This document shows, piece by piece, positions 41,051 through 64,000 of a stretch of 64,000 nt of DNA. The notes under the pieces were generated by a model. The model was not told the origin of the DNA. It saw only the letters and a list, made by a program, of their open reading frames with translations, and made no database searches. Position numbers and translations under genes: made by a program. Numbering within the stretch: the first letter of the stretch is position 1; every line of letters starts with the position of its first letter. Source of the stretch: an uncultured Myxococcia bacterium (GTDB lineage Bacteria; Myxococcota_A; JAVEVO01; CAYZFJ01); NCBI GenBank assembly GCA_964477705.1, contig CAYZFJ010000001.1, positions 11,380 to 75,379 on the forward strand. The letters run 5' to 3'.

Positions 41051-44000
41051 TCAAGGGGCAGGACGCAATCTTGGGTAAAGTGTGTAGCCTTCTGTGTCCA
41101 TGGCGTTGCCCCTCTCGCCATAGTAACTGTTAGAGAAGTTCTGTTCCCATATGGAATTGTTGCCGATGGCAGGAGCAGCAGGGGAGGCATCGTCATTGTT
41201 TACCATGTCAGGTCGATAGTATCTGTCTACTCCGCCACCATCTATAAAGAGGGCTCTGGTGAGGTATTGTTTTCTGGTGTAATCCTGGTGTGACATGGCC
41301 ATTCCAAGGGTGGTGCTGTCTCCCATCTCGTAGGTGTCTGCTCCATCTGTATCTATGAAGAGGGAGATGGAGTTGTAACGGGAAAAGCTGGCGGCTCTGG
41401 CATTGGCCACATAGCGATCCGAGCCGGAGATGTTATATACAACAGCCGCACTGAATTCGCCCGCAGATGCCAGGTGGCTATGGTGCAGCCTGTTGACGGT
41501 TACATTGAACTGGTCGTTGCCGTCATAATCCAGGAGTACTGCCAGACTGTAGTTGTCCGCACTGGCCTGGGCGAGTGCGGAGGAGTCGTATCGGTCGTTT
41601 CCTCCATGGTCGACCAGGTTGCCCCGCCCTGCCCATTCGGCTCGACCCTGTGCTCCCACGCCGGCCCGGTAGTAATCATCACCACCACCGTCTACTAGCA
41701 AGCCCAGTCCACCAGACATGATGCCTTCTGTATAAATGTTGAACGGGGGCACTCCTGCCGCTGCTCCCTGGCACAGGTTGCGGTTGAGGGCCTGGTTCTC
41801 TGACCATGGAAAGATGACTGTGTCCCTGCCTGTGGCGGGGGCGCTGGATGGTGGTGTAGTCGGGCCTGCTGATGGGGCTGCATTCTCGTCTCCAGCTACT
41901 GCGTGGTAGGTGTCAGGACTGTCACCAAGGTTGACGACTGCGCCAAACCCCAGGGTGCCTCCGTATCCCTGACATCCGTGCCAGGCCAGCAGCTCGTCTT
42001 GCCCTGCCAGGTCGAGGAGCAGCCCGGTGCCGAACAGGGCGCTGCCCTGGCTGAAAGATTCGCTTGCGTATCGGTCGTCTCCACCGTCGTCCAGGAGGAT
42101 GCCAACTCCCAGTATTCCGAATCCCTGGGACATGCGCAGTGAGCCGTACCAGTCATCGCCGGCACCGTAGTCAGCGATGATGCCTATGCCAAGGCGCCCA
42201 GAACCCTGGCGGCCGACCTGGGAGCTGGATTGGTTGGGGCCCTGGCCGAGGGGGACGAGCTGGTCGGAGTCTGGTGGTGCTGATGAGGATGAGGATGATG
42301 CAGGGTAGCGTCCCGCTGCGTCGGGTGTGAGCAGAGATACGGGAGCGACTGGGGCGATGCTGCTTGGTCGAGCGGTCTCTGTGGTGGTTGTTGTAGGGGG
42401 AGCGGTAGCCCCAGTACCAGTGTTGACGTGAGCAGGGGCGTTGAGGGTGGGGGATGTGGGGGCGGTGTTGGTGCCGGTGTCGGTGGGTGCCTGGTACGAA
42501 TAGGTGTCGTGACCGCCCAGGTCAATGGCGATGGATATGGGGTTGGAGATTGACATGGTTGCGCCGACCGGGATCTCATACAGGTCGTCACCTCCTGTGT
42601 CGATAAGCAGCAGGATGGCTTCTTCTTCGCCTTCAGGTTTCAGTATGCCTGCTCCATTACCAGAGTTGTGGTCAGCTCCTGTTGGCTGGTGGTGATCGTC
42701 CGCACTGTCCGCTATAATGAGCCGACCCATGGGGGTGACCAAATCCAGGTAAAAACCGGTGGTGTCAGCCAGTGGTGTCCAGTCGATCTGGTCTATGGCG
42801 CTGGTTATGGTGAGGGCCGCCTGTAGCATCAGGTCATGCTTGTAGTGTCTGGAGAGGAATCCCATGACCGCCGGCGACCTGAACCAGTGGTCAGCAGGCA
42901 TACTCTTTGTGGCAAATAGTACCTCTGGTATCCGGTAGTACAGGTCATTAATGAACTGGCCGTATGTTGGCGTGATGTTGGCCGCCCCCTCCAGGGCCTG
43001 GTTTCGCAGTGTGGATGCCTGGGCAGAGGCTTTGAGCAGGTGACCAGCCGCTGCCGCAACCGGGGCTGGCAGGGATGCGACTTGGTCGAGCAGATCGTCC
43101 TGTGGTGGTGCCTGTGTGCCTGCGGCGGTATAGATTGCTTCCAGCCCGTCAATCAGGAGCAGCTTGCCTTCGCCTTCTTTGAATATGGTCGGGTCAAAGG
43201 TGAAGTCATAGGTTTGATTGGCGCCGCCGGGTTGCCAGGCGTTGGTTGCATCAGCGTAGCCTTGCTGTTCGGCAGCATGGAGCACGGCCAAGGTGAGGGG
43301 CTTGCCCGCTGGATCTCCTATGCGAGAGAGCGCCTGGCTTCTGGTTGCCCCAAGCTGGGCTCCTTGCAGGGGTAGGCGGTATTCGTCGCTGAAACCATGC
43401 ATTGTGAGAGGGTCGGCTTTTACCGCCTCTGGAACCGCCAGCAGATCTCTGGCGGCGTTGTTGCCAAACGCACATGGGGATGAGAGGAGCATCTCCCGCA
43501 GCAGGTCCCGTTGGCCTGCCGGCGGCTTTTCCATACAGGAGCAGCTGTCTGGGAGGCATACTTTGGCTGGCCAGGCGCCGTACATTGGTGTGCAGATGGA
43601 CCCTGCCCCGCATTCGGTGTCACTGTTGCAGGCATGGGAGCAGATGCCTCTGGTTTCTCCGTTCAAGGTGAACGAGAAGCAGATCCCCTCGGCACATGGG
43701 CGCTGGGCTGAGCAGGAAGCTCCTACTCCAGCTCCAACTCCAACGCCGTTTTCATCTTCAGTTTGAGTCAGGGGAGTGATAAAGCCGCACTGGTTCCATC
43801 CATACGGCTCCTCTTGTATGCAGATGCCTGTGTCTGTACTAGTCCCATTCCCATTCCCATTCCCATTACCATTCCCTGTCCCTGTCCCTGCTTCAGGATT
43901 GTCACTGCTGCTGCTTATCTGACAGTGCCTCCAGCCTTCCGGGCAGTCCCGGTCCGCAGAGCAGGGGCTGGTACACCGGCCTCCTGAAGTCGGATTGGAG

Positions 44001-45283
44001 CACACATGATTCTGGCCGCCGCATGTGTCGCCATAGGGGCCACCACACAGGGTTCCCAGGAGCCAGGTTTCGCAGCGTGCAGTGTCAGGCACACATCCAT
44101 AAAGGGTTCGAGAGTTGGGCACATCTGGCACTGTAGAGCATGAGAACCCGAGAGGGCAGGTCTGACAGCGGTTCTGGTAGCAGATGGACCCAGCCGGACA
44201 CTCTCCAGTAGTCTGGCACCCATAGCAACTGCCGCCAATGCAGCGCAGGCGACATGTTCCGTCAATGCACCGCTGCATGTATGGGCAGGAGTTGTCTGGC
44301 TGGCATGGGCCTGTAGTGGTGCAGTCATAATCGCTTGAGCAGGTGTCACACTCCCTGGAACAAAATCCGGGTTCTCCTGCTTGTCGGACTACGCACAAAT
44401 CTCGCTCTGTACCGCACTCATCGTTTGTGAGGCATGGGCCACCACAGAGAGCTTGATCAGGGAGAAGACACCGGTCACCAGTTGATGGCTGGCAAACCAT
44501 GCCATCTGGGCAGGAGGTCTCTTCGCATTGGTTGTCACAGGTGCCGGCCAGAGGGACACACCATCCTTCGGTTGCGTCGGTTGTGATGGTGGCGCAGGTG
44601 TAGTTATCGGGGCATTTTAGAAATTGGTTGCAGCCTATGGAGCAGAAGCGTTGTTCGATGGCTGGGTGGTAGAGGCAGGAGGTGTTCCCCGTGCCACACT
44701 GATGATCGGTTTTGCATGGCTGGCACAGATATTCTGCATCGGGTTTGCATTTACCACTGGTCGGGTCACAGCCGTTACCCCAGGAGCAGGCGGGCTGGCC
44801 GATGCATGGGTCATCGCATCCGGTGACAGGCGTGCAGTAGTAATCTCCCCCAGAAGAGGCCATGCATGTGGTTCCGGTCGGGCAAATGGAACCGGCGGTG
44901 CTGTCTTGGGCATGGGGAGAGCAGGGCAAGGTGCAGATGCCACTTCCTGGCTCGGTGTGGGTGGGGATGATAGCGCAGGAGAGCCCGTCTGCAGTGCAGT
45001 GGGCTTGGTCTGTCAAGGAGCATGGGGTGCAGAATGAGTCGGGAACGGTGCGGTTATCGCCACCGTCAGGCCCCGTGTCGCTGTCTGCGGCAGCATCCGG
45101 ATTGTGGGTGTTGTCTCCCGCATCATCTGCGAAGTCTGCGTCATCCTCCAGGTCTGAATCGTAAGGTTCTTGGGAATCCTGATCATCAAATAAACTGGAC
45201 GGAGAGGAGCATGCAGGCAGAGCGCCCGCAATAATCAAGGTAAACAAGATGATCGGGATGAGCAGAAACTTCACGTTTATCAA
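41051..45283 (-). CDS. Giant secreted lipoprotein (1410 aa): Cys-rich EGF-like N-terminal half, (GN)n linker, C-terminal array of hhhD-x-G-G-x-D-x-Y repeats (FG-GAP/beta-propeller-like)
   Basis: Signal peptide with lipobox LPAC; >90 Cys in first 600 aa; about 10 repeats of LLxDxGGxDxY in last 500 aa. Confidence 0.6.
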   Translation of the reverse strand: MINVKFLLIPIILFTLIIAGALPACSSPSSLFDDQDSQEPYDSDLEDDADFADDAGDNTHNPDAAADSDTGPDGGDNRTVPDSFCTPCSLTDQAHCTADGLSCAIIPTHTEPGSGICTLPCSPHAQDSTAGSICPTGTTCMASSGGDYYCTPVTGCDDPCIGQPACSWGNGCDPTSGKCKPDAEYLCQPCKTDHQCGTGNTSCLYHPAIEQRFCSIGCNQFLKCPDNYTCATITTDATEGWCVPLAGTCDNQCEETSCPDGMVCQPSTGDRCLLPDQALCGGPCLTNDECGTERDLCVVRQAGEPGFCSRECDTCSSDYDCTTTGPCQPDNSCPYMQRCIDGTCRLRCIGGSCYGCQTTGECPAGSICYQNRCQTCPLGFSCSTVPDVPNSRTLYGCVPDTARCETWLLGTLCGGPYGDTCGGQNHVCSNPTSGGRCTSPCSADRDCPEGWRHCQISSSSDNPEAGTGTGNGNGNGNGNGTSTDTGICIQEEPYGWNQCGFITPLTQTEDENGVGVGAGVGASCSAQRPCAEGICFSFTLNGETRGICSHACNSDTECGAGSICTPMYGAWPAKVCLPDSCSCMEKPPAGQRDLLREMLLSSPCAFGNNAARDLLAVPEAVKADPLTMHGFSDEYRLPLQGAQLGATRSQALSRIGDPAGKPLTLAVLHAAEQQGYADATNAWQPGGANQTYDFTFDPTIFKEGEGKLLLIDGLEAIYTAAGTQAPPQDDLLDQVASLPAPVAAAAGHLLKASAQASTLRNQALEGAANITPTYGQFINDLYYRIPEVLFATKSMPADHWFRSPAVMGFLSRHYKHDLMLQAALTITSAIDQIDWTPLADTTGFYLDLVTPMGRLIIADSADDHHQPTGADHNSGNGAGILKPEGEEEAILLLIDTGGDDLYEIPVGATMSISNPISIAIDLGGHDTYSYQAPTDTGTNTAPTSPTLNAPAHVNTGTGATAPPTTTTTETARPSSIAPVAPVSLLTPDAAGRYPASSSSSSAPPDSDQLVPLGQGPNQSSSQVGRQGSGRLGIGIIADYGAGDDWYGSLRMSQGFGILGVGILLDDGGDDRYASESFSQGSALFGTGLLLDLAGQDELLAWHGCQGYGGTLGFGAVVNLGDSPDTYHAVAGDENAAPSAGPTTPPSSAPATGRDTVIFPWSENQALNRNLCQGAAAGVPPFNIYTEGIMSGGLGLLVDGGGDDYYRAGVGAQGRAEWAGRGNLVDHGGNDRYDSSALAQASADNYSLAVLLDYDGNDQFNVTVNRLHHSHLASAGEFSAAVVYNISGSDRYVANARAASFSRYNSISLFIDTDGADTYEMGDSTTLGMAMSHQDYTRKQYLTRALFIDGGGVDRYYRPDMVNNDDASPAAPAIGNNSIWEQNFSNSYYGERGNAMDTEGYTLYPRLRPAP
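43844..43890. repeat. Hexanucleotide SSR (CCCATT)n then (CCCTGT)2 inside the giant lipoprotein gene, encoding GNGNGNGNGNG
   Basis: cccattcccattcccattcccattaccattccctgtccctgtccctg. Confidence 0.8.
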
Positions 45284-45540: not shown

Positions 45541-45690
45541 CCTCCCAACGCCTGTAGGGGCACGGCATGCCGTGCCCTTCGTCAGCGGTGCACCCAACTC
45601 GCCTAAACAATTTTTGGCAATCCACTTGCCTTAAAAGAACACGTATGCGGCACACTGTGCCCTTCGCCAGCGGTGCGAACACTCCTTCAT
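45541..45690. repeat. REP-like element, long composite copy (core 45558-45577); additional degenerate copy at ~45430-45455
   Basis: About 110 nt near-identical to 15543-15660 including TTAAAAGAACACG segment. Confidence 0.7.
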
Positions 45691-51676: not shown

Positions 51677-54600
51677 GTGAAGAATCCTGATCAATTTCGC
51701 CATACCCTATTGATTTTATTAATATTTCAATTTTCTCTACTAATCTTCTTCGGTGCTTTGGGGGGCTGTGGTGGAGATCAGAATCAGGTTGAGCTGAAAC
51801 CGGATGGAGCCATCCTAAATGGTGACGCATCGTGGGCGGCTGGGGATGCGCAATTCCAGGGTGGTTGCAGTGACGGGGAGTCTTTTTGTTTGGAGAGCGG
51901 TTGTGTCGATTTGCTCCATGACTCAGCCCATTGCGGGGAATGTGGCAATGAGTGTGATTCGGACTATGAATGTACAAATGGCTTTTGTATCTTGGCTTGC
52001 CCAGAAAACCAAGCATCTTGTGGTGATCAGTGTGTCAATCTTGCCAAGGATCTGGAACACTGCGGTGAGTGTAACAATAAATGCCCTGCAGGATACTGGT
52101 GCGAAGAAGGGGACTGTTTCTTGTTTTGTCCAGAAAACCAGACATCTTGTGGGGGGCAGTGTGTCAATCTTGCCAAGGATCCGGGACATTGTGGAGCATG
52201 CGGCATCTTTTGTAGACAGGGTCAGGTCTGCGTCAATGGTGAATGCACCTACAGTTGCCCCATTGATCAGACCGTCTGTGGCTCCCAGTGTGTGAACCTA
52301 GCCTCTGATCCCTTTAATTGTGGCCAGTGTGGGGAGGACTGCTCCGATGGAATGGTCTGCTCTGAGGGAGAATGCAATATCCATTGTGCCGTTGGCTTTC
52401 ATCAATGCGGGAGCAGTTGTGTAAACCTGCAGATTGATCGCAAACACTGTGGTGAGTGTAATGGAAAGTGTCCACCCGGTGGGCTTTGTTCTGGTGGTGA
52501 ATGCATAGTGAGTTGTCAACTCGGACTCACCGACTGTAATGGCAGTTGCGTTGATTTGCTGGATGATCGAGCTAATTGCGGGGTTTGTGACCATGCTTGT
52601 GAGGGGGGTATGGTCTGTGACAATGGGGAATGTGCATTGGATTGCCCTACACCCACAGAAGAGTGTGCCGACACGTGCGTTAATACCAATTCGGACCGTT
52701 TTCACTGTGGCCAGTGTAGTCTTGAGTGTCCGCCGGGAATGGTCTGTGACAGCGGCCAATGTACCCTCATCTGCTCATTGGACCTTACCGATTGTGAAGG
52801 TAGCTGTGTGGATCTGATGACTGATTTCAGTCACTGTGGCCAGTGTGATCTCCAGTGTTCCCAGAATCAAGAATGCAGTGATGGCTCTTGTAATTGTCGG
52901 GAAGGCTTTGTGGAATGTGACAAGGTTTGTGTCGACCTGAAAACGGATTTGGACCACTGTGGCCAGTGTGACGTCCTGTGCGAGGTTGGGTCAGAATGTA
53001 TGGCTGGGCTCTGCATAGTTCCGGTGGTTGGTGTCTCTCTGGATGCCATCCTGCTGGATTTGGCTACAGGAGCCACCCAACAACTGCTAGCTACAGTTAT
53101 CCCCGCTCAGGCAACCAACAAGGCCCTCATCTGGTCCTCCAGCCATCCCCAGATCGCCACCATTGACGAGAATGGAGTGGTGGAGGGGATCAGTCCTGGT
53201 CAGGCTCAGATCAGCGTGCAGACCGTGGATGGAGGGTACTTCGCTACCTGCATGGTCAACGTGAAGATATTGGTGAGTGGAGTAGATATTTCCCTGGCAG
53301 AATTACTGCTCAGCCCGGGCCAGACCACCCACCTCCATGCTGCCGTGAAGCCTGCCACCGCCTGCAACCAATCTCTTACCTGGCAGAGCAGCAACAGCCA
53401 GGTGGCAACTGTGGACGGGAACGGCGTGGTCACTGCCAAGGCTGATGGTCAGGCATCAGTCACGGTCACCACCGTTGATGGAGGTTTCCAGGCATCGTGT
53501 CTGGTCACAGTGGTAACAATCCAAGTTACAGGGGTGGTGCTGATGCCCGGTGAGATTCATGTCGGCCGGGGGGCGGAATATGCACTGACAGCGGTAGTGA
53601 GCCCCGCCGATGCCTCTAACAAGACTGTGGTCTGGTACAGCAGCAACCCTGCCGTGGCCAGTATCAGCCAGGATGGAGTGGTGACTGGAGTGGAGAAAGG
53701 GTCGGCCACTATTATGGTGATCACTGGTGATGGCGGATTCCATGATACTGGCACGGTCCATGTGCAGATATCTGTAGAGAGGGTAGATCTCTACTTGGAC
53801 GCTTTGTACATGGAGCAGGGTGATTATGGGACCATTTTTTTTAGAATTTTCCCGGATGATGCTACCAATAAGACGGTCATCTGGGAATCCAGTGATCCAT
53901 CCATCGCTACTATTACAGACTCTGGCATAGTCACTGCCTGCAATGTGGGAGTCACCACAATCACTGTGACCAGCGTGGATGGCAGTCACACGGATTCACT
54001 CCAAATGTTTGTATGGCTTTAATCTGCGGGAAATTACCATAGACCCGTCATCAGCCACATTGGAGGTGGGTCAGACCATTACCCTGGTGCCTGTCTTCGA
54101 TCCGTCTGACATCCTGAACCAAAGCGTGAGTTGGAGCACCAGTGACCCTGCGGTGGCAAAGGTCGATTCAGAGGGGGTGGTGACGGGTCATGCTGTAGGT
54201 CAGGCCACTATCACTGCGCTCAAGCCGGGCACGGGAGTGAGTGGCTCCTGCAAGGTACATGTGTTCACCCGGGTTACTGGTGTTACCATCACCCCGAAGA
54301 CGCTGGAGTTGACCTTGGGGCAATCGGCATCCATGACTGCCACTGTGATACCGCCTGATGCACGTGTCAGGGATGTAGTGTGGACCAGCCACAATGATCA
54401 GATCGCCATGGTGAGCAGTGATGGTTTGGTTACCGGAGTGGGCATGGGGAGAACCCGAATCACTGTTGCCACCGTAGACGGGGCGTTGTCTGACAGTGCG
54501 GACGTGGAGGTGATAATCATTCCGGTGGAGGGGGTGACCATCACTCCCACTTCGCTGAACCTGCATGTAGGTAGTGCCGGGCAGTTAAGCGCCACCATCA

Positions 54601-55800
54601 TTCCGGCTGACGCCACCGATCAGTCGGTCACCTGGGCGACTGGAATCCTGCAGTTGCCACTGTTGATGCCAACGGACTGGTCACTGGACTGGGTGTTGGT
54701 ACGACTACCATCTCTGCCACCTCCCATGATGGAAATTCAGTGGCTGTCGCCATGTTCCAAGTAAGCGCCCTGGTTGAGAGTGTGTCTGTCAGCCCAACTG
54801 AGGCTTATGTTCTGATTAATCAATCAACCCAGTTGACCGCCACGGTGTTGCCTGCCAATGCCAATAACAAGGCGGTAACCTGGTCATCGTCTGCCAATTC
54901 CGTAGCCATGGTCAATGCTTCCGGCCTGGTGACCGGGGTGGGTCTTGGCAATGCCACTGTTACAGTGAAAACGGTGGATGGTCATTTTGTCGCTACAGCT
55001 TCAGTACGAGTAATCAGCATTCCGGCAGGGTATACGTTGATTCCTTCCGGTGCTTTCACCATGGGCAGCCCGCCCGATGAACCGTTTTGGTATTATGATG
55101 AAACCCAGCATCAGGTGACCCTTACAGTCCCTTTCCTGATGAAGATTACAGAGGTAACCCAGGGAGAATGGCAGACCATAATGGGTTATAATCCATCAGC
55201 ATTACAGTCGTGTGGCTCCAATTGCCCTGTGGAGCAGGTTTATTGGCATGAAGCGTTGGCCTATGCCAATGCACTGTCCGCTGCTGAGGAGTTGCCCCAA
55301 TGTTTCACCTGTACGTGGAGTGATGACAGAGCGAACTGTAGCCTCAAGTTGCAATATGGCAAACCTTATGACTGCCCAGGCTATCGGCTGCCCACGGAGG
55401 TAGAGTGGGAGTATGCTGCCCGGGTTGGTACACCACCACAGCCATCCATACTGGACCGATAACCAGTCAGGCGTCATGTCCCAACATGAATGCTGCAGGG
55501 TGGTATTATTACAATTCAGGTGGTACCACTCATACTGTAGGGAGTAAAGCAGCCAATGCCTGGGGCCTGTATGACATGCATGGCAACGTGTGGGAGTGGA
55601 CCTGGGATTGGTATCAGTTCGACTTGGGCAGCATGGCAGTGACAGACCCTTATGGCCCATCAATGGGCGAACTCCGGGTTGCGCGGGGCGGTTCGTATCG
55701 CGAGAGCGGAGGTTACTGCCGGGCAGCGTTTTGCGGCCCCAGCAATCCTGATGAACGCGACATTTCCGTAGGTTTCCGCCTCGCCCGGTCTGTATTGTAG
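51677..55800 (+). pseudogene. Disrupted gene for a large secreted protein: ~12 tandem 38-aa Cys-rich repeats + multiple Big_2 Ig-like domains + C-terminal FGE-sulfatase (SUMF1-like) domain; reading frame broken at ~54010-54030, ~54640 and ~55420-55470
   Basis: Four consecutive ORFs (51677-54022, 53979-54764, 54740-55462, 55405-55800) whose translations continue the same domain series across frame changes. Confidence 0.5.
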
Positions 55801-56388: not shown

Positions 56389-58965
56389 ATGGCCAATTTC
56401 AAGTATGTCAAATGGTTCGAGAATGTGGGTAATGAAGATGTACCGACAGTGGGCGGGAAAAATGCTTCCCTGGGCGAAATGATTCAGCACCTGCGCACCG
56501 AGAATATCCGGGTGCCCGGGGGATTCGCCACTACCTCCGACGCCTACTGGACCTACCTGGCCTACAACAACCTCACGGGAAAGATGGGCGACATCCTCGC
56601 CTCAATGCGGGAAAACCGCACCTCTCTGAACAGGGCCGGCGAAGAGGTGAGGCAGGCTATTCGCCATGGAATCTTCCCGGAAGAGGTTGAGACCGAAATT
56701 CACGACGCATACAGGGAACTTTCCCGCAGGTATGAGCAGGAGGACCTTGCCGTTGCCGTCAGGAGCAGCGCCACTGCAGAAGACCTTCCAAGCGCCAGCT
56801 TCGCCGGTCAGCAGGAGACCTTCCTCAATGTGCGGGGTGCAGCGGATCTGCTGGCAGCTTGCAGGGACTGCTACGCCTTCCTCTTTACCGACCGGGCAAT
56901 CGTCTACAGGGAGCGGCTTGGCTATGATCACATGAAGGTGGCCTTGTCTGTGGGTGTGCAGAAAATGGTCCGCTCCGATAAAGCGGGAGCGGGCGTCATG
57001 TTCTCACTGGACACGGATACCGGATTCCCTGATGTGGTGGTGATCAATGCTTCGGTTGGGCTTGGTGAAACGGTTGTTCAGGGCGCTGTCACGCCTGACG
57101 AGTACCGTGTGTTCAAACCTAGGCTCGGAATAGGTGTCCCTCCGAGGGAAAAGGCAGCCGCAAGAGAAGGCGGGAGAGTTGGGGCAACACCGGGAGGCGT
57201 ATCAGGAAGCACATCAAGAACAGCCGCCAGAGCAGAAGCTGCCGGAGCAGAGATGGCAGCCCGGGGCACGCCTGCTACTCCTGTGGCCACCCGTGGCGCA
57301 GCAGCAGAAGCAGAAGCGAGCTCCACCCGATACAGGCCGATCATTGAAAAACGGCTGGGCGTCAAGGAGAAGATGATTGTCTATGCCGAAGGAGGCAAGA
57401 ATCGCACCAAGACCATCGACACCCCTGCTGTACAGCGGAAGCAGTTCGTCCTGTCGGATGACGAGATTATCACCCTCGCACGCTGGGCAACCGCCATCGA
57501 GCGACACTATGGTCGGCCGATGGATATGGAGTGGGCCAAGGATGGTGACTCGGGAGAGCTCTATTGTGTGCAGGCTCGACCCGAGACGGTTTTTTCGCAG
57601 AAGAAGACTCATGCCTTGAAGACATACCATCTGGACCCAACCGGTCATACCCCAATCCTGACAGGCGTGGCGGTCGGCGAGTCGATTGCGGCGGGGCGGG
57701 TGAAAGTCCTGCACCGCCCTGAACAGATGCATCTCTTCCAGGATGGCGAAATCCTTGTCACGGAGCGGACTGATCCCGACTGGGGGGAGATCATGAAGAA
57801 GGCGGTAGCCATCATCACCGACCATGGGGGAAGGACCAGCCATGCCGCAATCGTCAGCAGGGAGCTGGGCATACCGGCGGTGGTGGGGACCGGGAATGCC
57901 ACCATCACCCTGCGTGATGGGCAGGAGATAACCCTGAGTTGCGCCGAGGGGGAGGAAGGACGCATCTATGAGGGTCATCTCCAGTACGAGGAACATGAAC
58001 TGGATACCTCCACACTGCCCAGACCTCCAGTCCAGTTCATGATCAACCTGGCCACCCCACAGGCTTTGTTCCGGTGGTGGCAGCTCCCGGTGAATGGCGT
58101 GGGCCTGGCGAGGATGGAATTCATCATCAATAACTGGATCAAGATCCACCCGCTCGCCCTGGCCAGGTTCAATCAGTTGCGGGATGACAATACCAATGCC
58201 AGAGCGCAGATTGAACAACTCACAGAAGGCTATGGAGACAAGACGGAATTTTTTGTCGACAAGCTCTCCATGGGTATTTCCATGATCGCCGCATCGCAGT
58301 ACCCCGACCCCGTGATTGTGCGGACGAGCGATTTCAAGACCAACGAGTACGCCAAGCTGATTGGTGGCGCCCAATTCGAGCCCCATGAGGAGAACCCGAT
58401 GCTGGGGTTCAGGGGCGCATCCAGGTACTACAGCGACCGCTACAGAGACGGATTCGCCCTGGAATGCAGGGCGGTGAGGAAAGCACGTGATGTAATCGGG
58501 CTCGACAACATCGTGGTCATGATTCCCTTTGTCCGCACCGTCGGCGAAGCGGACCAGGTGTTGCAGGAGATGGCCGTTCACGGCCTTCAGCGCGGCCAGG
58601 ATGGTCTCCAGGTCTACATGATGTGCGAGGTGCCCTCCAACGTTTTCCTTGCCCGGGAATTCGCCGACCGCTTTGACGGATTTTCCATCGGGAGCAACGA
58701 TCTCACCCAACTCATCCTGGGGGTGGATCGGGACTCCGAGACATTGCGGTCACTATTCGATGAACAGAATGAGGCGGTGAAGATTGCCATCAGCCAGGTG
58801 ATACAGAGTGCCCACGAGAAGGGCGTAAAGGTGGGGCTGTGCGGGCAGGCTCCCAGCGATTACCCCGACTTCGCCCACTTCCTGGTAGATGAGCATATAG
58901 ATTCAATCTCCCTCAACCCGGACAGCGTCCTCCCACTACTTCAGGGTTGGGGGAAGAGAGGTTGA
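56389..58965 (+). CDS. ppsA: Phosphoenolpyruvate synthase with ~70-aa Ala/Gly/Arg-rich insertion
   Basis: MANFKYVKWFENVG...GGKNASLGEM N-terminus; TDHGGRTSHAAIVSRELGIPAVVG phosphohistidine domain; C-terminal TIM-barrel motifs. Confidence 0.85.
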   Translation: MANFKYVKWFENVGNEDVPTVGGKNASLGEMIQHLRTENIRVPGGFATTSDAYWTYLAYNNLTGKMGDILASMRENRTSLNRAGEEVRQAIRHGIFPEEVETEIHDAYRELSRRYEQEDLAVAVRSSATAEDLPSASFAGQQETFLNVRGAADLLAACRDCYAFLFTDRAIVYRERLGYDHMKVALSVGVQKMVRSDKAGAGVMFSLDTDTGFPDVVVINASVGLGETVVQGAVTPDEYRVFKPRLGIGVPPREKAAAREGGRVGATPGGVSGSTSRTAARAEAAGAEMAARGTPATPVATRGAAAEAEASSTRYRPIIEKRLGVKEKMIVYAEGGKNRTKTIDTPAVQRKQFVLSDDEIITLARWATAIERHYGRPMDMEWAKDGDSGELYCVQARPETVFSQKKTHALKTYHLDPTGHTPILTGVAVGESIAAGRVKVLHRPEQMHLFQDGEILVTERTDPDWGEIMKKAVAIITDHGGRTSHAAIVSRELGIPAVVGTGNATITLRDGQEITLSCAEGEEGRIYEGHLQYEEHELDTSTLPRPPVQFMINLATPQALFRWWQLPVNGVGLARMEFIINNWIKIHPLALARFNQLRDDNTNARAQIEQLTEGYGDKTEFFVDKLSMGISMIAASQYPDPVIVRTSDFKTNEYAKLIGGAQFEPHEENPMLGFRGASRYYSDRYRDGFALECRAVRKARDVIGLDNIVVMIPFVRTVGEADQVLQEMAVHGLQRGQDGLQVYMMCEVPSNVFLAREFADRFDGFSIGSNDLTQLILGVDRDSETLRSLFDEQNEAVKIAISQVIQSAHEKGVKVGLCGQAPSDYPDFAHFLVDEHIDSISLNPDSVLPLLQGWGKRG

Positions 58966-59298
58966 AAAGGCGGCTTTCAACAGCCCCTGCTGGCGGCCGC
59001 AGTACCGTTTGAAGGATATCTCTCAAGATTCCTCCAGTAAATGCTGACAAACAGAGCGTCTAGATCTTACACATACCTCTTGAATGACCATGAGCCATCA
59101 GTTCAGGTTCCTTCCCCGAATGTTCAAACCGTTGTAATCCCTTGAATTGTCATAAAATTATTTCAAATCAACTTACAATAACCAGTTGGAAGGTTCTGCC
59201 CTTTGTTCACGCCACCAAAGTAATACCTTGACAACCAAATCTCATCAAAGTTACATCTAAGACTCATTTTTCAACAACATCCTCAGGGGGAAACACTG

Positions 59299-59499
59299 AT
59301 GATGGACAAGTCACTTCTTGATGCCGGCTGCCGTGTTGCGTTTGCTGCACTGCTGCATGATCAAGGTAAATTTGCTGAACGGGCAGGTATGCCCAACTCC
59401 TGCAAAGTCAGGGCTCTAGGGCTAATAAACGGGAGCAAAGGGCAGCGATTTAGCGCTTGTTGGCTCAAGGGTAATACGACCGAAGAGCAGACCACATGA
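59299..59499 (+). pseudogene. 66-aa ORF carrying a Cas10/Cas3-type HD-domain N-terminal motif (AALLHDQGKFAERAG); probable truncated HD nuclease remnant or mini-protein; stop overlaps cas6 start (ATGA)
   Basis: LLHDxGKF is the start of the HD motif of Cas10/Cas3 HD domains; ORF ends after 66 aa; GGGGGA RBS. Confidence 0.3.
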
Positions 59500-60611
59500 A
59501 CCATTCTCTGAGTCTAATCAGCAATGATGCCAACATTCAGGCACAGGCTGCATCCCTCCTGGACCTGTCATCCAGCTTAACTTTGGGCAGGATCACTTTT
59601 ACCTTCTGTTCCGAGGATAATACTCGGCTTCCCCCTTTTCTTGGCTCTACCCTGAGGGGAGCTCTCGGTGGTGCCCTGCGCTCCATTGCCTGTGTGCGTG
59701 AGAGAGGTACCAACTGCCTCACTTGTGCCTTGTGTGAGGGGTGTGCCTATGCCTATCTGTTTGAAACTCCTGTCCCCTCAGCGGCCAACCGTCTGCGCCG
59801 TTTGCAGCATCTGCCTCATCCATTCATTATTGAGCCGCCTCCTCTCCAGCCAGGCGGGCTGAATCTTGAGCCTGGCTCCCTGCTCACCTTTTCTATGGTC
59901 CTGATAGGTAAAGCTACCACCTACCTCCCATATGTCCTGTTGGCAGCGTCCCGTATGGGGGCAGCCGGGTTGGGTGCCGAGCGTGCCGTCTTCCAGTTGA
60001 TAAAGGCTGAATCGGATTTGCCAGGATGGCTGATGGATGCAGTGGAAAGCGGTGAGAGCCAGAGAGACGACAGCGAACTGGCGGTTCAAGCCGCCCCGTC
60101 GTCTCTGCTCCTCTGGACGCCGGATTCAGCCGCTATCAATGGGCTCCCCAAGGTGACCCCATCCGGGCTGCAAAAGGTTCTGTCCATGCAACCAACTGAG
60201 GCAGGTGCCGCTGGCGAGCGAGTTCAGGTTGAGTTTACCACCCCTGTCAGGCTCGTTGAGCAGGGCCGAGTTGTCAGCAATCTGGAATTTAGAGTATTTA
60301 TCCGGTCTTTGCTAAGTCGTGTCTCTTCTTTGGCCATCTTCCATTGTGGGCAAGATGAACAGGATTTGGACTACCGGAGCTTGGTTGATGCTGCTGATAT
60401 GGTCAATGAGACAGAGCAAGATCTCTCCATTCGACCTCTCCAGCGGTGGAGTCAGCGTCAACAGCGGACTATTGGCCTTGATGGCCTCCTGGGAGGGGTT
60501 GCCTGGAGAGGAGAGATCATGCCGCTCCTGCTGCCCTTGATTAGAATTGGCCAGATTGTTCATGTGGGTAAAGGGACCGTCTTTGGCCTCGGCCGTTATC
60601 GCCTCTTGTAG
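59496..60611 (+). CDS. cas6: Cas6-like RAMP endoribonuclease with Zn-finger-like cysteines
   Basis: C-terminal glycine-rich loop VHVGKGTVFGLGRYRLL (G-x-G-x5-G-x-G); CLTCALCEGC cysteine cluster; adjacent to cas1. Confidence 0.5.
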   Translation: MNHSLSLISNDANIQAQAASLLDLSSSLTLGRITFTFCSEDNTRLPPFLGSTLRGALGGALRSIACVRERGTNCLTCALCEGCAYAYLFETPVPSAANRLRRLQHLPHPFIIEPPPLQPGGLNLEPGSLLTFSMVLIGKATTYLPYVLLAASRMGAAGLGAERAVFQLIKAESDLPGWLMDAVESGESQRDDSELAVQAAPSSLLLWTPDSAAINGLPKVTPSGLQKVLSMQPTEAGAAGERVQVEFTTPVRLVEQGRVVSNLEFRVFIRSLLSRVSSLAIFHCGQDEQDLDYRSLVDAADMVNETEQDLSIRPLQRWSQRQQRTIGLDGLLGGVAWRGEIMPLLLPLIRIGQIVHVGKGTVFGLGRYRLL

Positions 60612-60725
60612 AAAAGCAACCAGGTACAGAGGCGATCACAACCGCTCGATAGGTGCACGCACATTACGTTGTATTCTCTGACGAGCAATTCGCACACACC
60701 ATGGCAACATTTCGGGAGGTAGTTC

Positions 60726-63323
60726 ATGGATAAACTGGAGAAGCCCCCACTCGATACATCCTCTTTCGCCGAGTCCGCCCCTTTACCATCACCACCAGGG
60801 CTGCCCGAACAGCTTAAAATCCTGATGAGGGATGGGCTCTTTGACCAGGCCGCAGACCTGCTTCAGGCAACCGACACTAAAGCAGAGATAGACGCGCCCC
60901 TCCACCACCAATTGGCCGTCCTGGCCGAAGAGTTGGGCGTCCTGGACAAGGCGGTGCTTGAGTATAATCTCTCACTGCGTGATGTGCCTGAACAACCCGC
61001 TGTTCTTCTGCGTCTTGCTCGATTACGTCGTGACCAGGGCGATGGGGATAGAGCACTGAGGGCCTATGGAAGATTGCTTCAGCTTGAGCCAGAAAATGTA
61101 CAAGCACGCATAGAGGCTGCCGACGTCTTGGTCGAGCTTGGCAGGTATGGTGAGTCGGCCAACCTCTTGCGTGTTGGCCTTGCTTATTCGGAGAATGTGC
61201 AGTTAAAGACTGCCCTGCGGCGCCTGAACATTGTTGATGGAAGTAGGGTAAGGTCTGCGACTGCTTGTGGGTTCTCAGATGCTGGTACAGGAGATGATTA
61301 TGACGGCACCAGTACCAGCGCTGACCCAAACAGTGATTATAGCGACAATAGTGGTAATGACGAGAAGCGAATGGGCGATGGTGCGGTTCTGGGGTTGGGC
61401 ACAGGAGTGGAGGCTGGGCCTAAGGCTGGGCCTAACGCTGTACCAGTAATTGGGTCTGACTGGGGGGCAAATCAGGAAACAGGGAGGGTGGATCCAGGCG
61501 CAAACCGTGGCAGTCTTGCTTTGCGGTCTGATTGCCTGGTACCTGATGATGTGGATTTAGTTGTGTTTTCTTCTCTGTTTGCGGGTCGAGAAGGCTTTTA
61601 TGCCAGACAGTGGGCAAGCGCATCTGGTAAACACGGTTATACGCCAATAGCAGAGCCATTCACTCCTCACGTTGCCCGTGGCCACCTGCTTGGCAATCAT
61701 ACGATTGGCATTTATCCGGTTCGGATGGATCATTCTGCTCTGTTTCTCGCTTTTGATATTGATATTGCCAAGTTTGCTTTGGGAAGGTGGAACGGTGCTG
61801 GCAGCGTTGTTGGCAGCGGTGTTGGTGAGGGTAAGAGTGGGGCGTCTGGAGGTCGTGCTGCCTTGCCCGGCCATCCTATGTTGCGTCTCGCACATCAGGT
61901 CGCTGTTGGTCTGGTGAGGGCAGCGGCATCCCTTGGTGTCCCAGCCTATCTTGAAGACTCTGGCAGCAAAGGCCGCCATGTCTGGATCTTCTTTGAGACT
62001 CCCATACCGGCAGTTGCAGCCAGAAGAATTGGCAATGCAATTATCGCAGGCTCCCCCGTGGCATGTCCCCCGGAAATTACTATTGAGGTGTTCCCCAAAC
62101 AGAATCGGGTGGATAAGGATGGTGGTCTTGGCAACCTGATTAAGCTGCCCCTCGGTATTCACCTTGTTTCAGGAAGTCGCAGCCTGTTTCTGGATGAAGG
62201 TGGCAGGCCGGTTCGAGAGCAATTAGCCTACATCCGCTCGATAAAGCGCCTCTCACGGGTGGCTGTGGCAGACTTGCTCCGTGGGCTATCTGTGGTTGAT
62301 GATCCTCTCGTCACAAGAGGGAGCGGGGGACACATGCCCAGGCAAGGGCAGCTGGCAAGTCGCCAATCAGTAAATATAAAGAGCAGTCGTGGTTATGAAG
62401 TAGCAGGGCTGGCTGATGAGATGGGGGTTTGCCCTGGTGTGGTTGATGAGGTTGATGATTTACCTGAGCTTGATGAGCTTGATGAGCTTTGTGGAAGCTA
62501 CTCGGAGGCAGGCAATCGGGCCCATGGTGGTGCAGCGGCGGGGAGTGGACTTAGGCCCGGTTCTAGGCCCGGGTCTGCACAATATGTGGGCCCATTAGGT
62601 GCTGCCGGACCTGAGGTGCCACAGTACAACCTTGATGCCGATGAAGAGTTTCTATGGCTTACCCAAAAATGCCCGGTTATTGCCCAGATTGTGCGCCGGG
62701 TGCGAGAGGACAGGATTCTGCCCAACTCCCATCGCCTGATTGTTACCTATACTGTGGGGCATCTCCCAACCGGGCCCCAGGCAGTGAACACCATATTATC
62801 GTTTGCCCTCAATACGGATCGATCCTTGTTCCTTAAGTCTACGCTTAAGGGTAATCCCATGAGTTGTCCCAAGATCCGTTCTCATCTATCAGATTTGGCA
62901 AGCGCAGTGGAATGTAATTGTCGTTTTAATATGAGAGATGGCATGTATCCCACTCCTCTTTTGCATCTACAGTCGTTGAGATTGAGCGGAACCATAGGAG
63001 CTAGCCCGGGAGAGCTTGGCATGTTGCAGGTGGAACGAATGGTGTCTGATCTTTTCCGGCTTCGTGGCGAAATTGAGCGCAGCGAGAGATTGGCAAGGCA
63101 GATTGAGTCCCGGCTACTTGAGGTGATGAATGAGCACCAAGTGCGGGAATTGAGCGTGCCATCGGGGATTCTGCGGCTGCAGCCTGCTTCGGGCGGCCAG
63201 GAACATGACGAGCTTGTATTGGGACTGCCGGGTGAGAGTGTGTGTATGGCTGGTGGGGGGAGCATGGTTGTAGGGACGGGCGTAGGAGAAGATGTGGCAG
63301 CGACCACAAAAGAAACCAGATAA
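60726..63323 (+). CDS. TPR-repeat + primase-polymerase (archaeo-eukaryotic primase superfamily, CAPP-like) protein with C-terminal Cys/His-containing domain
   Basis: AEP motifs: FLAFDIDI (DxD), SGSKGRHVWIFF (sGxGxH), NLIKLPLGIHLVSGSR (motif III); N-terminal ~200 aa TPR-like helical repeats; GGGAGG RBS. Confidence 0.6.
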   Translation: MDKLEKPPLDTSSFAESAPLPSPPGLPEQLKILMRDGLFDQAADLLQATDTKAEIDAPLHHQLAVLAEELGVLDKAVLEYNLSLRDVPEQPAVLLRLARLRRDQGDGDRALRAYGRLLQLEPENVQARIEAADVLVELGRYGESANLLRVGLAYSENVQLKTALRRLNIVDGSRVRSATACGFSDAGTGDDYDGTSTSADPNSDYSDNSGNDEKRMGDGAVLGLGTGVEAGPKAGPNAVPVIGSDWGANQETGRVDPGANRGSLALRSDCLVPDDVDLVVFSSLFAGREGFYARQWASASGKHGYTPIAEPFTPHVARGHLLGNHTIGIYPVRMDHSALFLAFDIDIAKFALGRWNGAGSVVGSGVGEGKSGASGGRAALPGHPMLRLAHQVAVGLVRAAASLGVPAYLEDSGSKGRHVWIFFETPIPAVAARRIGNAIIAGSPVACPPEITIEVFPKQNRVDKDGGLGNLIKLPLGIHLVSGSRSLFLDEGGRPVREQLAYIRSIKRLSRVAVADLLRGLSVVDDPLVTRGSGGHMPRQGQLASRQSVNIKSSRGYEVAGLADEMGVCPGVVDEVDDLPELDELDELCGSYSEAGNRAHGGAAAGSGLRPGSRPGSAQYVGPLGAAGPEVPQYNLDADEEFLWLTQKCPVIAQIVRRVREDRILPNSHRLIVTYTVGHLPTGPQAVNTILSFALNTDRSLFLKSTLKGNPMSCPKIRSHLSDLASAVECNCRFNMRDGMYPTPLLHLQSLRLSGTIGASPGELGMLQVERMVSDLFRLRGEIERSERLARQIESRLLEVMNEHQVRELSVPSGILRLQPASGGQEHDELVLGLPGESVCMAGGGSMVVGTGVGEDVAATTKETR

Positions 63324-63343
63324 GCACTGATAAGCACCAAACA

Positions 63344-64000
63344 ATGTCTTCAATTCTTTATGTAACTGAACAGGGGAGTGAACTCGGCATACAGCGTACC
63401 CGTCTGGAGGTCAGGAAGGGTGGACGTGTGCTGAACTCCGTGCGTTTTGAAGATCTTGGTCAAGTAGTCTTGTGCGGCAATGTACAGCTCTCCATTCAGG
63501 CAATACGCTCTCTGCTGCGTAATGGAATCGACACGGTGTTTCTTACAATGGGGGGCTCGTTTCTAGGCAGGCTCTCAGGACCGATGGGCAAGAATGTGGA
63601 GCTGCGTCACCTTCAGCACCAGCTCCTTGATGATCCTGAACAGACCCTTGAGATCGCCAGGCGAATGGTAGCAGGCAAGCTGGCTAATTCGGTTGCTTTG
63701 CTCCGTCGTTATCAAAGGAGCAGACAAGATGACCGGATTGCCCGACCCATGGTAGCTATCAGATTGCTCGGAGAGAGATTAGCCGAGGTAGATAACCTTG
63801 ATGCCCTGAGAGGGATGGAAGGCAAAGCCGCTGCCGACTATTTCAGTGCCTTTCCTGCATTGCTCATGGCCCCGGGAATGGATTTCGTCAAGCGGGTAAG
63901 AAGGCCGCCGCCTGATCCGGTCAATATTCTTTTGTCTCTCGGGTACACAATGCTTGGAAACCTGGTGCAGGGGATGGTTGAGCTGGCAGGCTTGGACCCA
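63344..64000 (+). CDS. cas1: CRISPR-associated endonuclease Cas1, 3' truncated by window edge
   Basis: MSSILYVTEQGSELG N-terminus; RVRRPPPDPVNILLSLGYTML conserved Cas1 segment; 20 nt after Prim-Pol gene. Confidence 0.8.
   Translation, partial: MSSILYVTEQGSELGIQRTRLEVRKGGRVLNSVRFEDLGQVVLCGNVQLSIQAIRSLLRNGIDTVFLTMGGSFLGRLSGPMGKNVELRHLQHQLLDDPEQTLEIARRMVAGKLANSVALLRRYQRSRQDDRIARPMVAIRLLGERLAEVDNLDALRGMEGKAAADYFSAFPALLMAPGMDFVKRVRRPPPDPVNILLSLGYTMLGNLVQGMVELAGLDP

Follow-up and report, generated by a model that had tools for sequence, protein, structure and literature searches.

A cas6-CAPP-cas1 cluster behind a putative cas10 relic in DNA of an uncultured Myxococcota-like bacterium

What kind of CRISPR locus places a primase-polymerase (Prim-Pol) between cas6 and cas1, and does such an order amount to a new mode of spacer acquisition? 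The question is raised by positions 59299 to 64000 of a 64,000-nt stretch of contig CAYZFJ010000001.1 (the window). An earlier note on this DNA described four open reading frames (ORFs) of one strand, separated by an ATGA overlap, 114 nt and 20 nt, and read them as an HD-motif remnant, Cas6, a TPR-fused Prim-Pol with the three catalytic motifs of the AEP family, and Cas1, together forming a candidate Prim-Pol-based CRISPR adaptation unit of the type III kind. All coordinates and spacings were reproduced exactly, and profile searches and structure models agree on the four identities. The region is interpreted here, with a probability of about 0.85, as the start of a type III-associated operon for adaptation and CRISPR RNA (crRNA) processing, in which cas6, a CRISPR-associated Prim-Pol (CAPP) gene and cas1 follow a cas10 relic, and in which cas2 and the CRISPR array are expected beyond the window. 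The cas6-CAPP-cas1 cluster is of a kind that has already been described and was biochemically tested in 2021; its unusual features are the cas10 stub and the lack of effector genes between cas6 and CAPP. The features are as follows.

58966 to 59298, no strand: low-G+C intergenic region of 333 nt, from the stop codon of a phosphoenolpyruvate (PEP) synthase gene (58965) to the first ATG
59299 to 59499, + strand: mini-ORF of 66 codons, read as a cas10 relic; its stop overlaps the cas6 start (ATGA)
59496 to 60611, + strand: cas6, 371 aa, with profile and structure matches, apparently intact
60726 to 63323, + strand: CAPP, class A 'CAPP-TPR' or NCBI type A1, 865 aa (NF040561, PADLOC PrimPol)
60801 to 61253, + strand: TPR domain of CAPP, residues 26-176 (Pfam TPR, AlphaFold2, Foldseek)
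61548 to 62300, + strand: AEP/Prim-Pol catalytic domain of CAPP, residues 275-525 (Pfam AEP-TOTE, phmmer, Foldseek)
62628 to 63230, + strand: C-terminal domain of CAPP, residues ~635-835 (family alignment, AlphaFold2)
63344 to 64000, + strand: first 219 codons of cas1 (PF01867, TIGR00287); the gene exceeds the window end

The 865-aa protein scores 266.2 bits against the NCBIfam model NF040561 ('CRISPR-associated primase-polymerase type A1'; cutoff 200 bits, E 5e-79) and also matches the PADLOC PrimPol 'adaptation polymerase' profile (4e-81, residues 36-788) and Pfam AEP-TOTE (2.9e-45, residues 279-515). TPR_19 (2.2e-8), TPR_16 and TPR_14 match residues ~90-165, within a helical repeat array (26-176) that AlphaFold2 (AF2) predicts with a local confidence score (pLDDT) above 90 and that Foldseek matches to TPR structures. 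The AEP core (275-525) and the C-terminal domain (~640-835) are likewise modelled with confidence. In the AEP domain, the residues of DxD (D344 and D346), of SGxKGxH (H418) and E454 are family-invariant and present; they would correspond to AEP motifs I-III. Across a 26-sequence family alignment, the protein retains all 47 invariant columns. These columns include C649, C714, C732 and H747 of the C-terminal domain, and the nearly invariant C730 is present there too. The model shows this domain folded and helical (~640-835), with a long helix and then a small beta unit after the conserved residues. No Pfam PriCT match was obtained for this domain; the term 'PriCT-like' comes from the description of the C-terminal domain of Marinitoga piezophila CAPP, MpCAPP (PMC8211822). 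By every sequence-level measure, the protein is a CAPP-TPR.

CAPP proteins were defined by Zabrady et al. 2021 (PMC8211822), who described CAPP-TPR as a three-part protein, with a TPR at the N-terminus, the AEP core, and a PriCT-like C-terminal domain that contains Cys. DNA-templated priming, polymerisation and strand displacement, and binding to Cas1 and Cas2, are known only for MpCAPP and DbCAPP (PMC8211822). The three-part architecture of the window protein is that of the first type of CAPP_A, represented by MpCAPP and the CAPP of Marinitoga sp. 1137 (PDB 7nqd, 7nqe, 7nqf, 7p9j). Its core matches 7nqd/7nqf at ~4e-27 (phmmer) and superposes on the Marinitoga sp. 1137 Prim-Pol domain with a TM-score of 0.92-0.93 and a root-mean-square deviation of 2.0 A (Foldseek). 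The score above the family cutoff, the cas1 gene immediately downstream and the type III context are further points of likeness. In contrast, the identity of the core is only ~29%, the host is a Myxococcota-like metagenome-assembled genome (MAG) rather than one of the Thermotogae, no Argonaute partner is seen, and the upstream neighbour is cas6.

The window protein is also longer, with 865 residues compared with 546 in MpCAPP; the majority of the 26 aligned relatives have 582-795. Some 190 lineage-specific residues fall in columns that are absent from most relatives (178-231, 235-250, 355-374, 541-578, 600-609 and both ends), which place them in the TPR-AEP linker, one AEP loop, the AEP-C-terminal-domain linker and the tail. 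New domains were considered as the source of the extra length and rejected, the surplus being low-complexity inserts; the linker regions that contain the main ones have pLDDT below 50 (172-268, 362-377, 526-628 and 838-865). Relatives are at most 51% identical in a scan of species-representative genomes and at most 42% in a scan of metagenome contigs. With the cluster, the family gains a divergent CAPP-TPR of an uncultured Myxococcota-like lineage, which is ~29% identical to the crystallised core and no more than 55% identical to any protein in the databases. This protein shows that the linkers and one catalytic-domain loop of the family can accommodate ~190 residues of disordered insert.

The gene upstream of CAPP encodes the crRNA-processing endoribonuclease Cas6, which appears intact from its sequence and model. 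Its product matches the PADLOC profile PDLC01477 over nearly its full length (5.6e-86; residues 27-370 against profile positions 2-294 of 296) and Pfam PF10040 (1.4e-14), and it belongs to a family with the architecture PF27225 + PF10040, many of whose members among its 175 homologues are named 'precrRNA processing endoribonuclease RAMP protein Cas6' by NCBI/JGI. An alignment of 37 sequences has 27 invariant residues, all of them kept here, and the positions of the C-terminal glycine-rich loop HVGKGTVFGLG (H356-G366) are invariant or nearly so. The AF2 model (pLDDT 89; predicted TM-score 0.88) retrieves Cas6 proteins or domains as its top 27 matches in the PDB (E 2e-12 to 2e-7), with the Cas6 domain of Marinomonas mediterranea Cas6-RT-Cas1 in first place (6dd5, E 2e-12) and canonical Cas6 proteins next (4ill and 4c9d, ~1e-10). 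The two closest relatives of this Cas6 (44% and 39% identical) are encoded by the leading genes of type III-A operons, with cas10 coming after cas6.

Downstream of CAPP, cas1 runs off the window at position 64000 after 219 codons. The encoded segment matches PF01867 (1.1e-61, profile positions 1-214 of 283) and TIGR00287 (1e-52, 179 bits against a cutoff of 71.7). The conserved stretch GMEGKAAADYF, presumably the carrier of the catalytic Glu, is present, and the catalytic His and Asp would lie past 64000, outside the window. Cas6, the polymerase and Cas1 are three unfused ORFs, set apart by stop codons and by gaps of 114 nt and 20 nt.

The placing of cas1 next to CAPP recurs in related loci. 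A scan of species-representative genomes yielded 373 loci with Prim-Pol relatives, of which 80 were kept, and cas genes were mapped on 83 related loci. A script placed cas1 next after CAPP in 68 of 69 loci with enough downstream sequence; it mis-scored the one exception, L006, where cas1 also directly follows CAPP, so the count is 69/69. cas2 follows cas1 in 33 of 35 loci, and the arrays usually start a few hundred bases past cas2. Their repeats measure 36-37 nt and share the 3´ end GGGGATTG[CA][GA]AC across several phyla (L003, L019, L025, L037, L057 and others). By analogy, cas2 and an array of 36-37-nt repeats are to be expected just past the window end, and the common repeat end could guide the search for that array. 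CAPP-cas1-cas2-array forms an almost invariant block that is attached to Csm, Cmr and reverse transcriptase (RT)-containing type III loci. The CAPP score above the NF040561 cutoff, the adjacent cas1 and this synteny all bear out the proposal of a Prim-Pol-based adaptation unit of the type III kind.

The commonest operon among the relatives is cas6-cas10-csm2-csm3-csm4-csm5-MJ1673-like-CARF gene-CAPP-cas1-cas2 (L003, L019, L026, L037 and L085), and type III-A (Csm) loci with CAPP were found here in Desulfomonilales, Thermodesulfobacteriota and Myxococcota MAGs. Versions with Cmr genes were found in six loci (L025, L045, L061, L065, L069 and L073), and an RT or RT-AEP gene stands directly 5´ of CAPP in three (L081, L171 and L010). 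The type III-A locus L085 (JBBRBO010000014.1; cas6-cas10-csm2-csm3-csm4-csm5-MJ1673-CARF gene-CAPP-cas1) shares with the window the Cas6 family, the CAPP family and Cas1, all on one strand and in the same relative order. Unlike L085, the window has no ~8-kb block of effector and ancillary genes to separate cas6 from CAPP, and its only trace of cas10, a ~30-residue stub, lies upstream rather than downstream of cas6. Of 37 loci, 19 encode this Cas6 family within 10 kb upstream of CAPP. That one Cas6 family so often stands first in CAPP operons adds modestly to PMC8211822, which makes no mention of Cas6 (0 occurrences).

Direct contact between the two genes is uncommon. Relatives usually have 6-8 kb of effector genes separating cas6 from CAPP, and only 2 of 62 have the two genes side by side, an Acidobacteriota MAG (L042, CAYREJ010000232.1; 126 nt) and a Planctomycetota MAG (L065, VGZC01000059.1; 215 nt). 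Both resemble the window in having cas6 directly 5´ of CAPP, but the HD motif of Cas10 N-termini is missing upstream of cas6 in both; L065 has a CARF-family gene and homologues of cmr2 and cmr3 there, on the same strand. In L086 and L063, cas6-x-x-CAPP-cas1-cas2-array lies ~8 kb of unrelated genes away from cas10. The view that the arrangement is untypical stands for cas6 beside the Prim-Pol with an HD remnant in front; it does not stand for the TPR fusion, which is not unusual: it is the defining architecture of the archetypal CAPP-TPR (PMC8211822), NCBI has a curated model for it, and species-representative genomes yielded 373 relatives.

Two further genes were observed beside CAPP or Cas6 in related loci. 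The usual immediate upstream neighbour of CAPP encodes a protein of 425-485 aa with at most a weak Csx1-CARF match (E 0.004) or a match to the Cas_Cas02710 family (L085 8681-9958; L086 8532-9986); it is absent from the window. A 694-aa adenosine-deaminase-domain protein adjoins CAPP in one locus (L172 5368-7452, - strand) and the closest Cas6 relative in another (L167 279-2363, - strand). The L172 protein also has a weak match to a CARF family (Cas_NE0113). The 694-aa protein is probably a cyclic-oligoadenylate-dependent ancillary effector of type III loci.

The mini-ORF in front of cas6 reads, by sequence comparison, as a relic 5´ end of cas10/csm1 that encodes the N-terminus of the HD domain. 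Its residues 13-32 align with the first 20 positions of the PADLOC Cas10a profile (E 4.3e-4). A profile of 19 Cas10 N-termini, whose training set was chosen by the same HD motif from proteins independently identified as Cas10, matched the mini-ORF alone among the 1478 six-frame ORFs of the window (E 3.8e-5; next 2.8). Translated in six frames, the entire window contains the motif, two hydrophobic residues followed by HD-x-GK, just once, in this mini-ORF; in 18 related loci it occurs exclusively at the N-termini of full-length Cas10/Csm1, and its distance from the start Met is the same in the mini-ORF as in real Cas10 proteins. The best pairwise match sets mini-ORF MDKSLLDAGCRVAFAALLHDQGKFAERAGM against MDPTLLKIAAAALLHDIGKFADRTAL of the Cas10 (Csm1) of L019. 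The Cas10-like part comprises the first ~30 residues (nt 59302-59391). The tail (residues ~32-66) gave no blastx match against all ORFs of related loci, and in the 114-nt gap between cas6 and CAPP, the same search for gene remnants matched only the Cas6 C-terminus. An AGGGGGA ribosome-binding site 7-13 nt upstream of the ATG at 59299 serves the mini-ORF. With a cas10 relic in front, effector genes that share the operon in relatives would have been deleted or moved. Both the stub and the close apposition of cas6 and CAPP are genuine and infrequent features, and they likely point to gene loss rather than to a new mechanism.

Several observations weigh against this interpretation of the region. 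No CRISPR array and no single repeat like those of the relatives was found in the 64-kb window by a direct-repeat finder, Tandem Repeats Finder, a k-mer periodicity scan, a search with 22 consensus repeats of relatives (up to 7 mismatches) or Rfam. tblastn with queries from relatives (Cas10 as Csm1 and Cmr2, Csm2-5, Cmr3, the CARF gene and Cas2; threshold E <1e-4 for Csm2-5 and Cmr3) found no Cas10, Csm or Cmr homologue in the window besides the stub, and no match to cas2, which by analogy would lie beyond the window end. The homology of the stub is limited to some 18-30 residues. The closest Cas6 relatives have cas10 after cas6, but here the stub comes first, and one simple deletion from that order is therefore insufficient. 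For a single deletion to explain the scar, cas10 must at one time have stood ahead of cas6, which is the order in the Cmr-type loci L061, L065 and L073; the stub resembles Csm1-type N-termini, whereas these three loci are Cmr-type. Finally, an in vivo role of CAPP in adaptation is a proposal in the literature too.

If the region is nevertheless the start of an adaptation and processing operon, its products can be assigned provisional roles. The activity of CAPP and its binding to Cas1-Cas2 would be those of its homologues (PMC8211822), for which prespacer synthesis and the resolution of an integration intermediate have been proposed. CAPP may convert single-stranded fragments of invader DNA into double-stranded prespacers for Cas1-Cas2; alternatively, it may fill and resolve gapped repeat intermediates after integration. 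Cas6 would cleave the array transcript into crRNAs. The cas10 stub would be the scar of effector-gene loss or rearrangement, and with its stop overlapping the cas6 start, it may now only couple translation into cas6.

The alternative that survives best is an orphaned or decaying module, in which the effector operon has been deleted and the remainder either works in trans with another type III system or nears loss. We regard it as a serious contender that falls short of even odds. The reduction of Cas10 to ~30 residues fits it, as do the 59 kb upstream, in which no further effector homologue was found, the 6-8 kb of effectors that relatives normally have between cas6 and CAPP (the two genes abut in only 2 of 62), and the effector-detached clusters of L086 and L063, which show that such a state exists. 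However, Cas6, CAPP and the N-terminal part of Cas1 retain every invariant residue and thus give no hint of decay; moreover, relatives can carry effectors downstream of cas1 (L062), and ~11.8 kb of the contig lie outside the window. A more specific version holds that a clean deletion of the type III effector operon left ~30 cas10 codons and a short tail, and that cas6-CAPP-cas1, perhaps with cas2 and the array, has been kept under selection alone, acting in trans. This is doubtful. If true, the cluster would be a free-standing Prim-Pol-based adaptation and processing cassette that gives crRNAs and spacers to an effector encoded elsewhere. The stub is a small datable trace of effector loss or rearrangement and could help to show how adaptation becomes detached from interference; beyond annotation, the significance of the cluster is little.

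A fortuitous HD motif, in a mini-ORF that is spurious or codes for an unrelated leader peptide, is improbable. The shortness of the homology speaks for chance (generic HD models are weak, with Pfam HD at E 0.23 and NCBIfam at E 0.04-0.08), together with the ~35 final residues that match nothing and a place upstream of cas6 that differs from that of cas10 in the closest relatives. Against these stand the Cas10 N-terminus profile, to which the mini-ORF is the only match in the window, the independent PADLOC Cas10a model with its first 20 positions aligned, the spacing of the motif from the Met, and a ribosome-binding site of its own directly beside cas genes. The reading of the mini-ORF as a cas10 relic is preferred on this balance.

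A further proposal was that the Prim-Pol substitutes for the RT of Cas6-RT-Cas1 modules and that spacer acquisition may be RNA-templated. The order of Cas6, polymerase and Cas1 does parallel the domain order of the Marinomonas mediterranea protein (PDB 6dd5, 7kfu), which also serves type III adaptation and supplies the nearest Cas6 fold, marginally better than canonical Cas6. Unlike that fusion, the window has separate genes and an AEP Prim-Pol instead of an RT. None of the four ORFs matches RVT_1, and PADLOC RT_UG10 matches at CAPP residues 394-491, within the AEP domain (279-515). Homologous CAPPs favour DNA: MpCAPP and DbCAPP show a clear DNA-template preference for dNTP incorporation (PMC8211822), which counts against RNA-templated synthesis. 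Nor does CAPP take the place of RT in relatives, where RT genes or RT-AEP fusions adjoin CAPP-TPR (L081, L171, L010 and L070). Large genes of this class stand upstream of CAPP-TPR in the closest CAPP relatives (L171 1857-7580, L081 6891-12319 and L010 7411-11659); L171 and probably L010 encode an RT-AEP fusion, whereas the L081 gene is an RT with no AEP match on record. Loci with such a fusion place two Prim-Pol domains and one RT ahead of cas1-cas2, and in RT-CAPP fusions, the activity resides in the RT domain and not in the Prim-Pol domain (PMC10415136). An RT substitute that copies RNA is accordingly very unlikely.

That the 865-aa protein is the replication primase of an integrated plasmid or phage, with cas1 adjacent by coincidence, is effectively refuted: CAPP-related AEP Prim-Pols do occur in mobile elements and phages (PMC8211822), the Pfam name AEP-TOTE comes from a non-CRISPR conflict system, and the distant matches (E 1e-24 and weaker) are helicase fusions, but the protein scores above the curated cutoff of a CRISPR-specific NCBIfam model and has the complete TPR-AEP-C-terminal-domain architecture, cas1 follows CAPP in essentially every relative and lies 20 nt downstream here, and the window offers no integrase, housekeeping flanks and a cluster G+C like that of the rest.

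The flanking sequence bears on the host and on expression. The context is chromosomal: the window carries rpoB/rpoC and the tRNA cluster of the EF-Tu region, and the genes upstream of the cluster are housekeeping or surface genes: those for PEP synthase, nucleoside phosphorylases, a phosphopentomutase-like protein, a DeoC-like protein and Big_2 proteins. RpoB shares 72-74% identity with its counterparts in MAGs of Myxococcota, Polyangia and 'Deltaproteobacteria', which indicates that the host is an uncultured lineage without close sequenced relatives. The intergenic region at 58966-59298 does have the low G+C ascribed to it (0.385-0.40, against ~0.53 for the window). The suggestion that it is a promoter region found no backing in a sigma-70 consensus scan, which returned 0 sites across it; by eye, a perfect TTGACA at 59228-59233 is followed after 17 nt by a weak TTACAT. 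The promoter of the operon may lie within this region.

The remaining observations concern other parts of the window. The PEP synthase (56389-58965, + strand), with PPDK_N, mobile and PEP-binding domains, contains a ~70-residue insert rich in Ala, Gly, Arg and Thr at ~250-325. This insert resembles those of CAPP, and the genome seems prone to such insertions. A 1410-aa ORF at 41051-45283 (- strand) has no Pfam match at E <1e-5, includes short tandem repeats at 43841-43882 and lies in the most G+C-rich part of the window (0.58-0.60). At 45563-45676, in an intergenic region upstream of the DeoC-like gene, a 29-nt sequence occurs twice (86% identical) 85 nt apart, which may be chance. Three consecutive ORFs at 51677-55462 (+ strand) encode Big_2 Ig-like repeats; the first (781 aa) contains six STIG1-like cysteine-rich repeats and the third an FGE-sulfatase domain, and the three form a probable cluster of cell-surface proteins.

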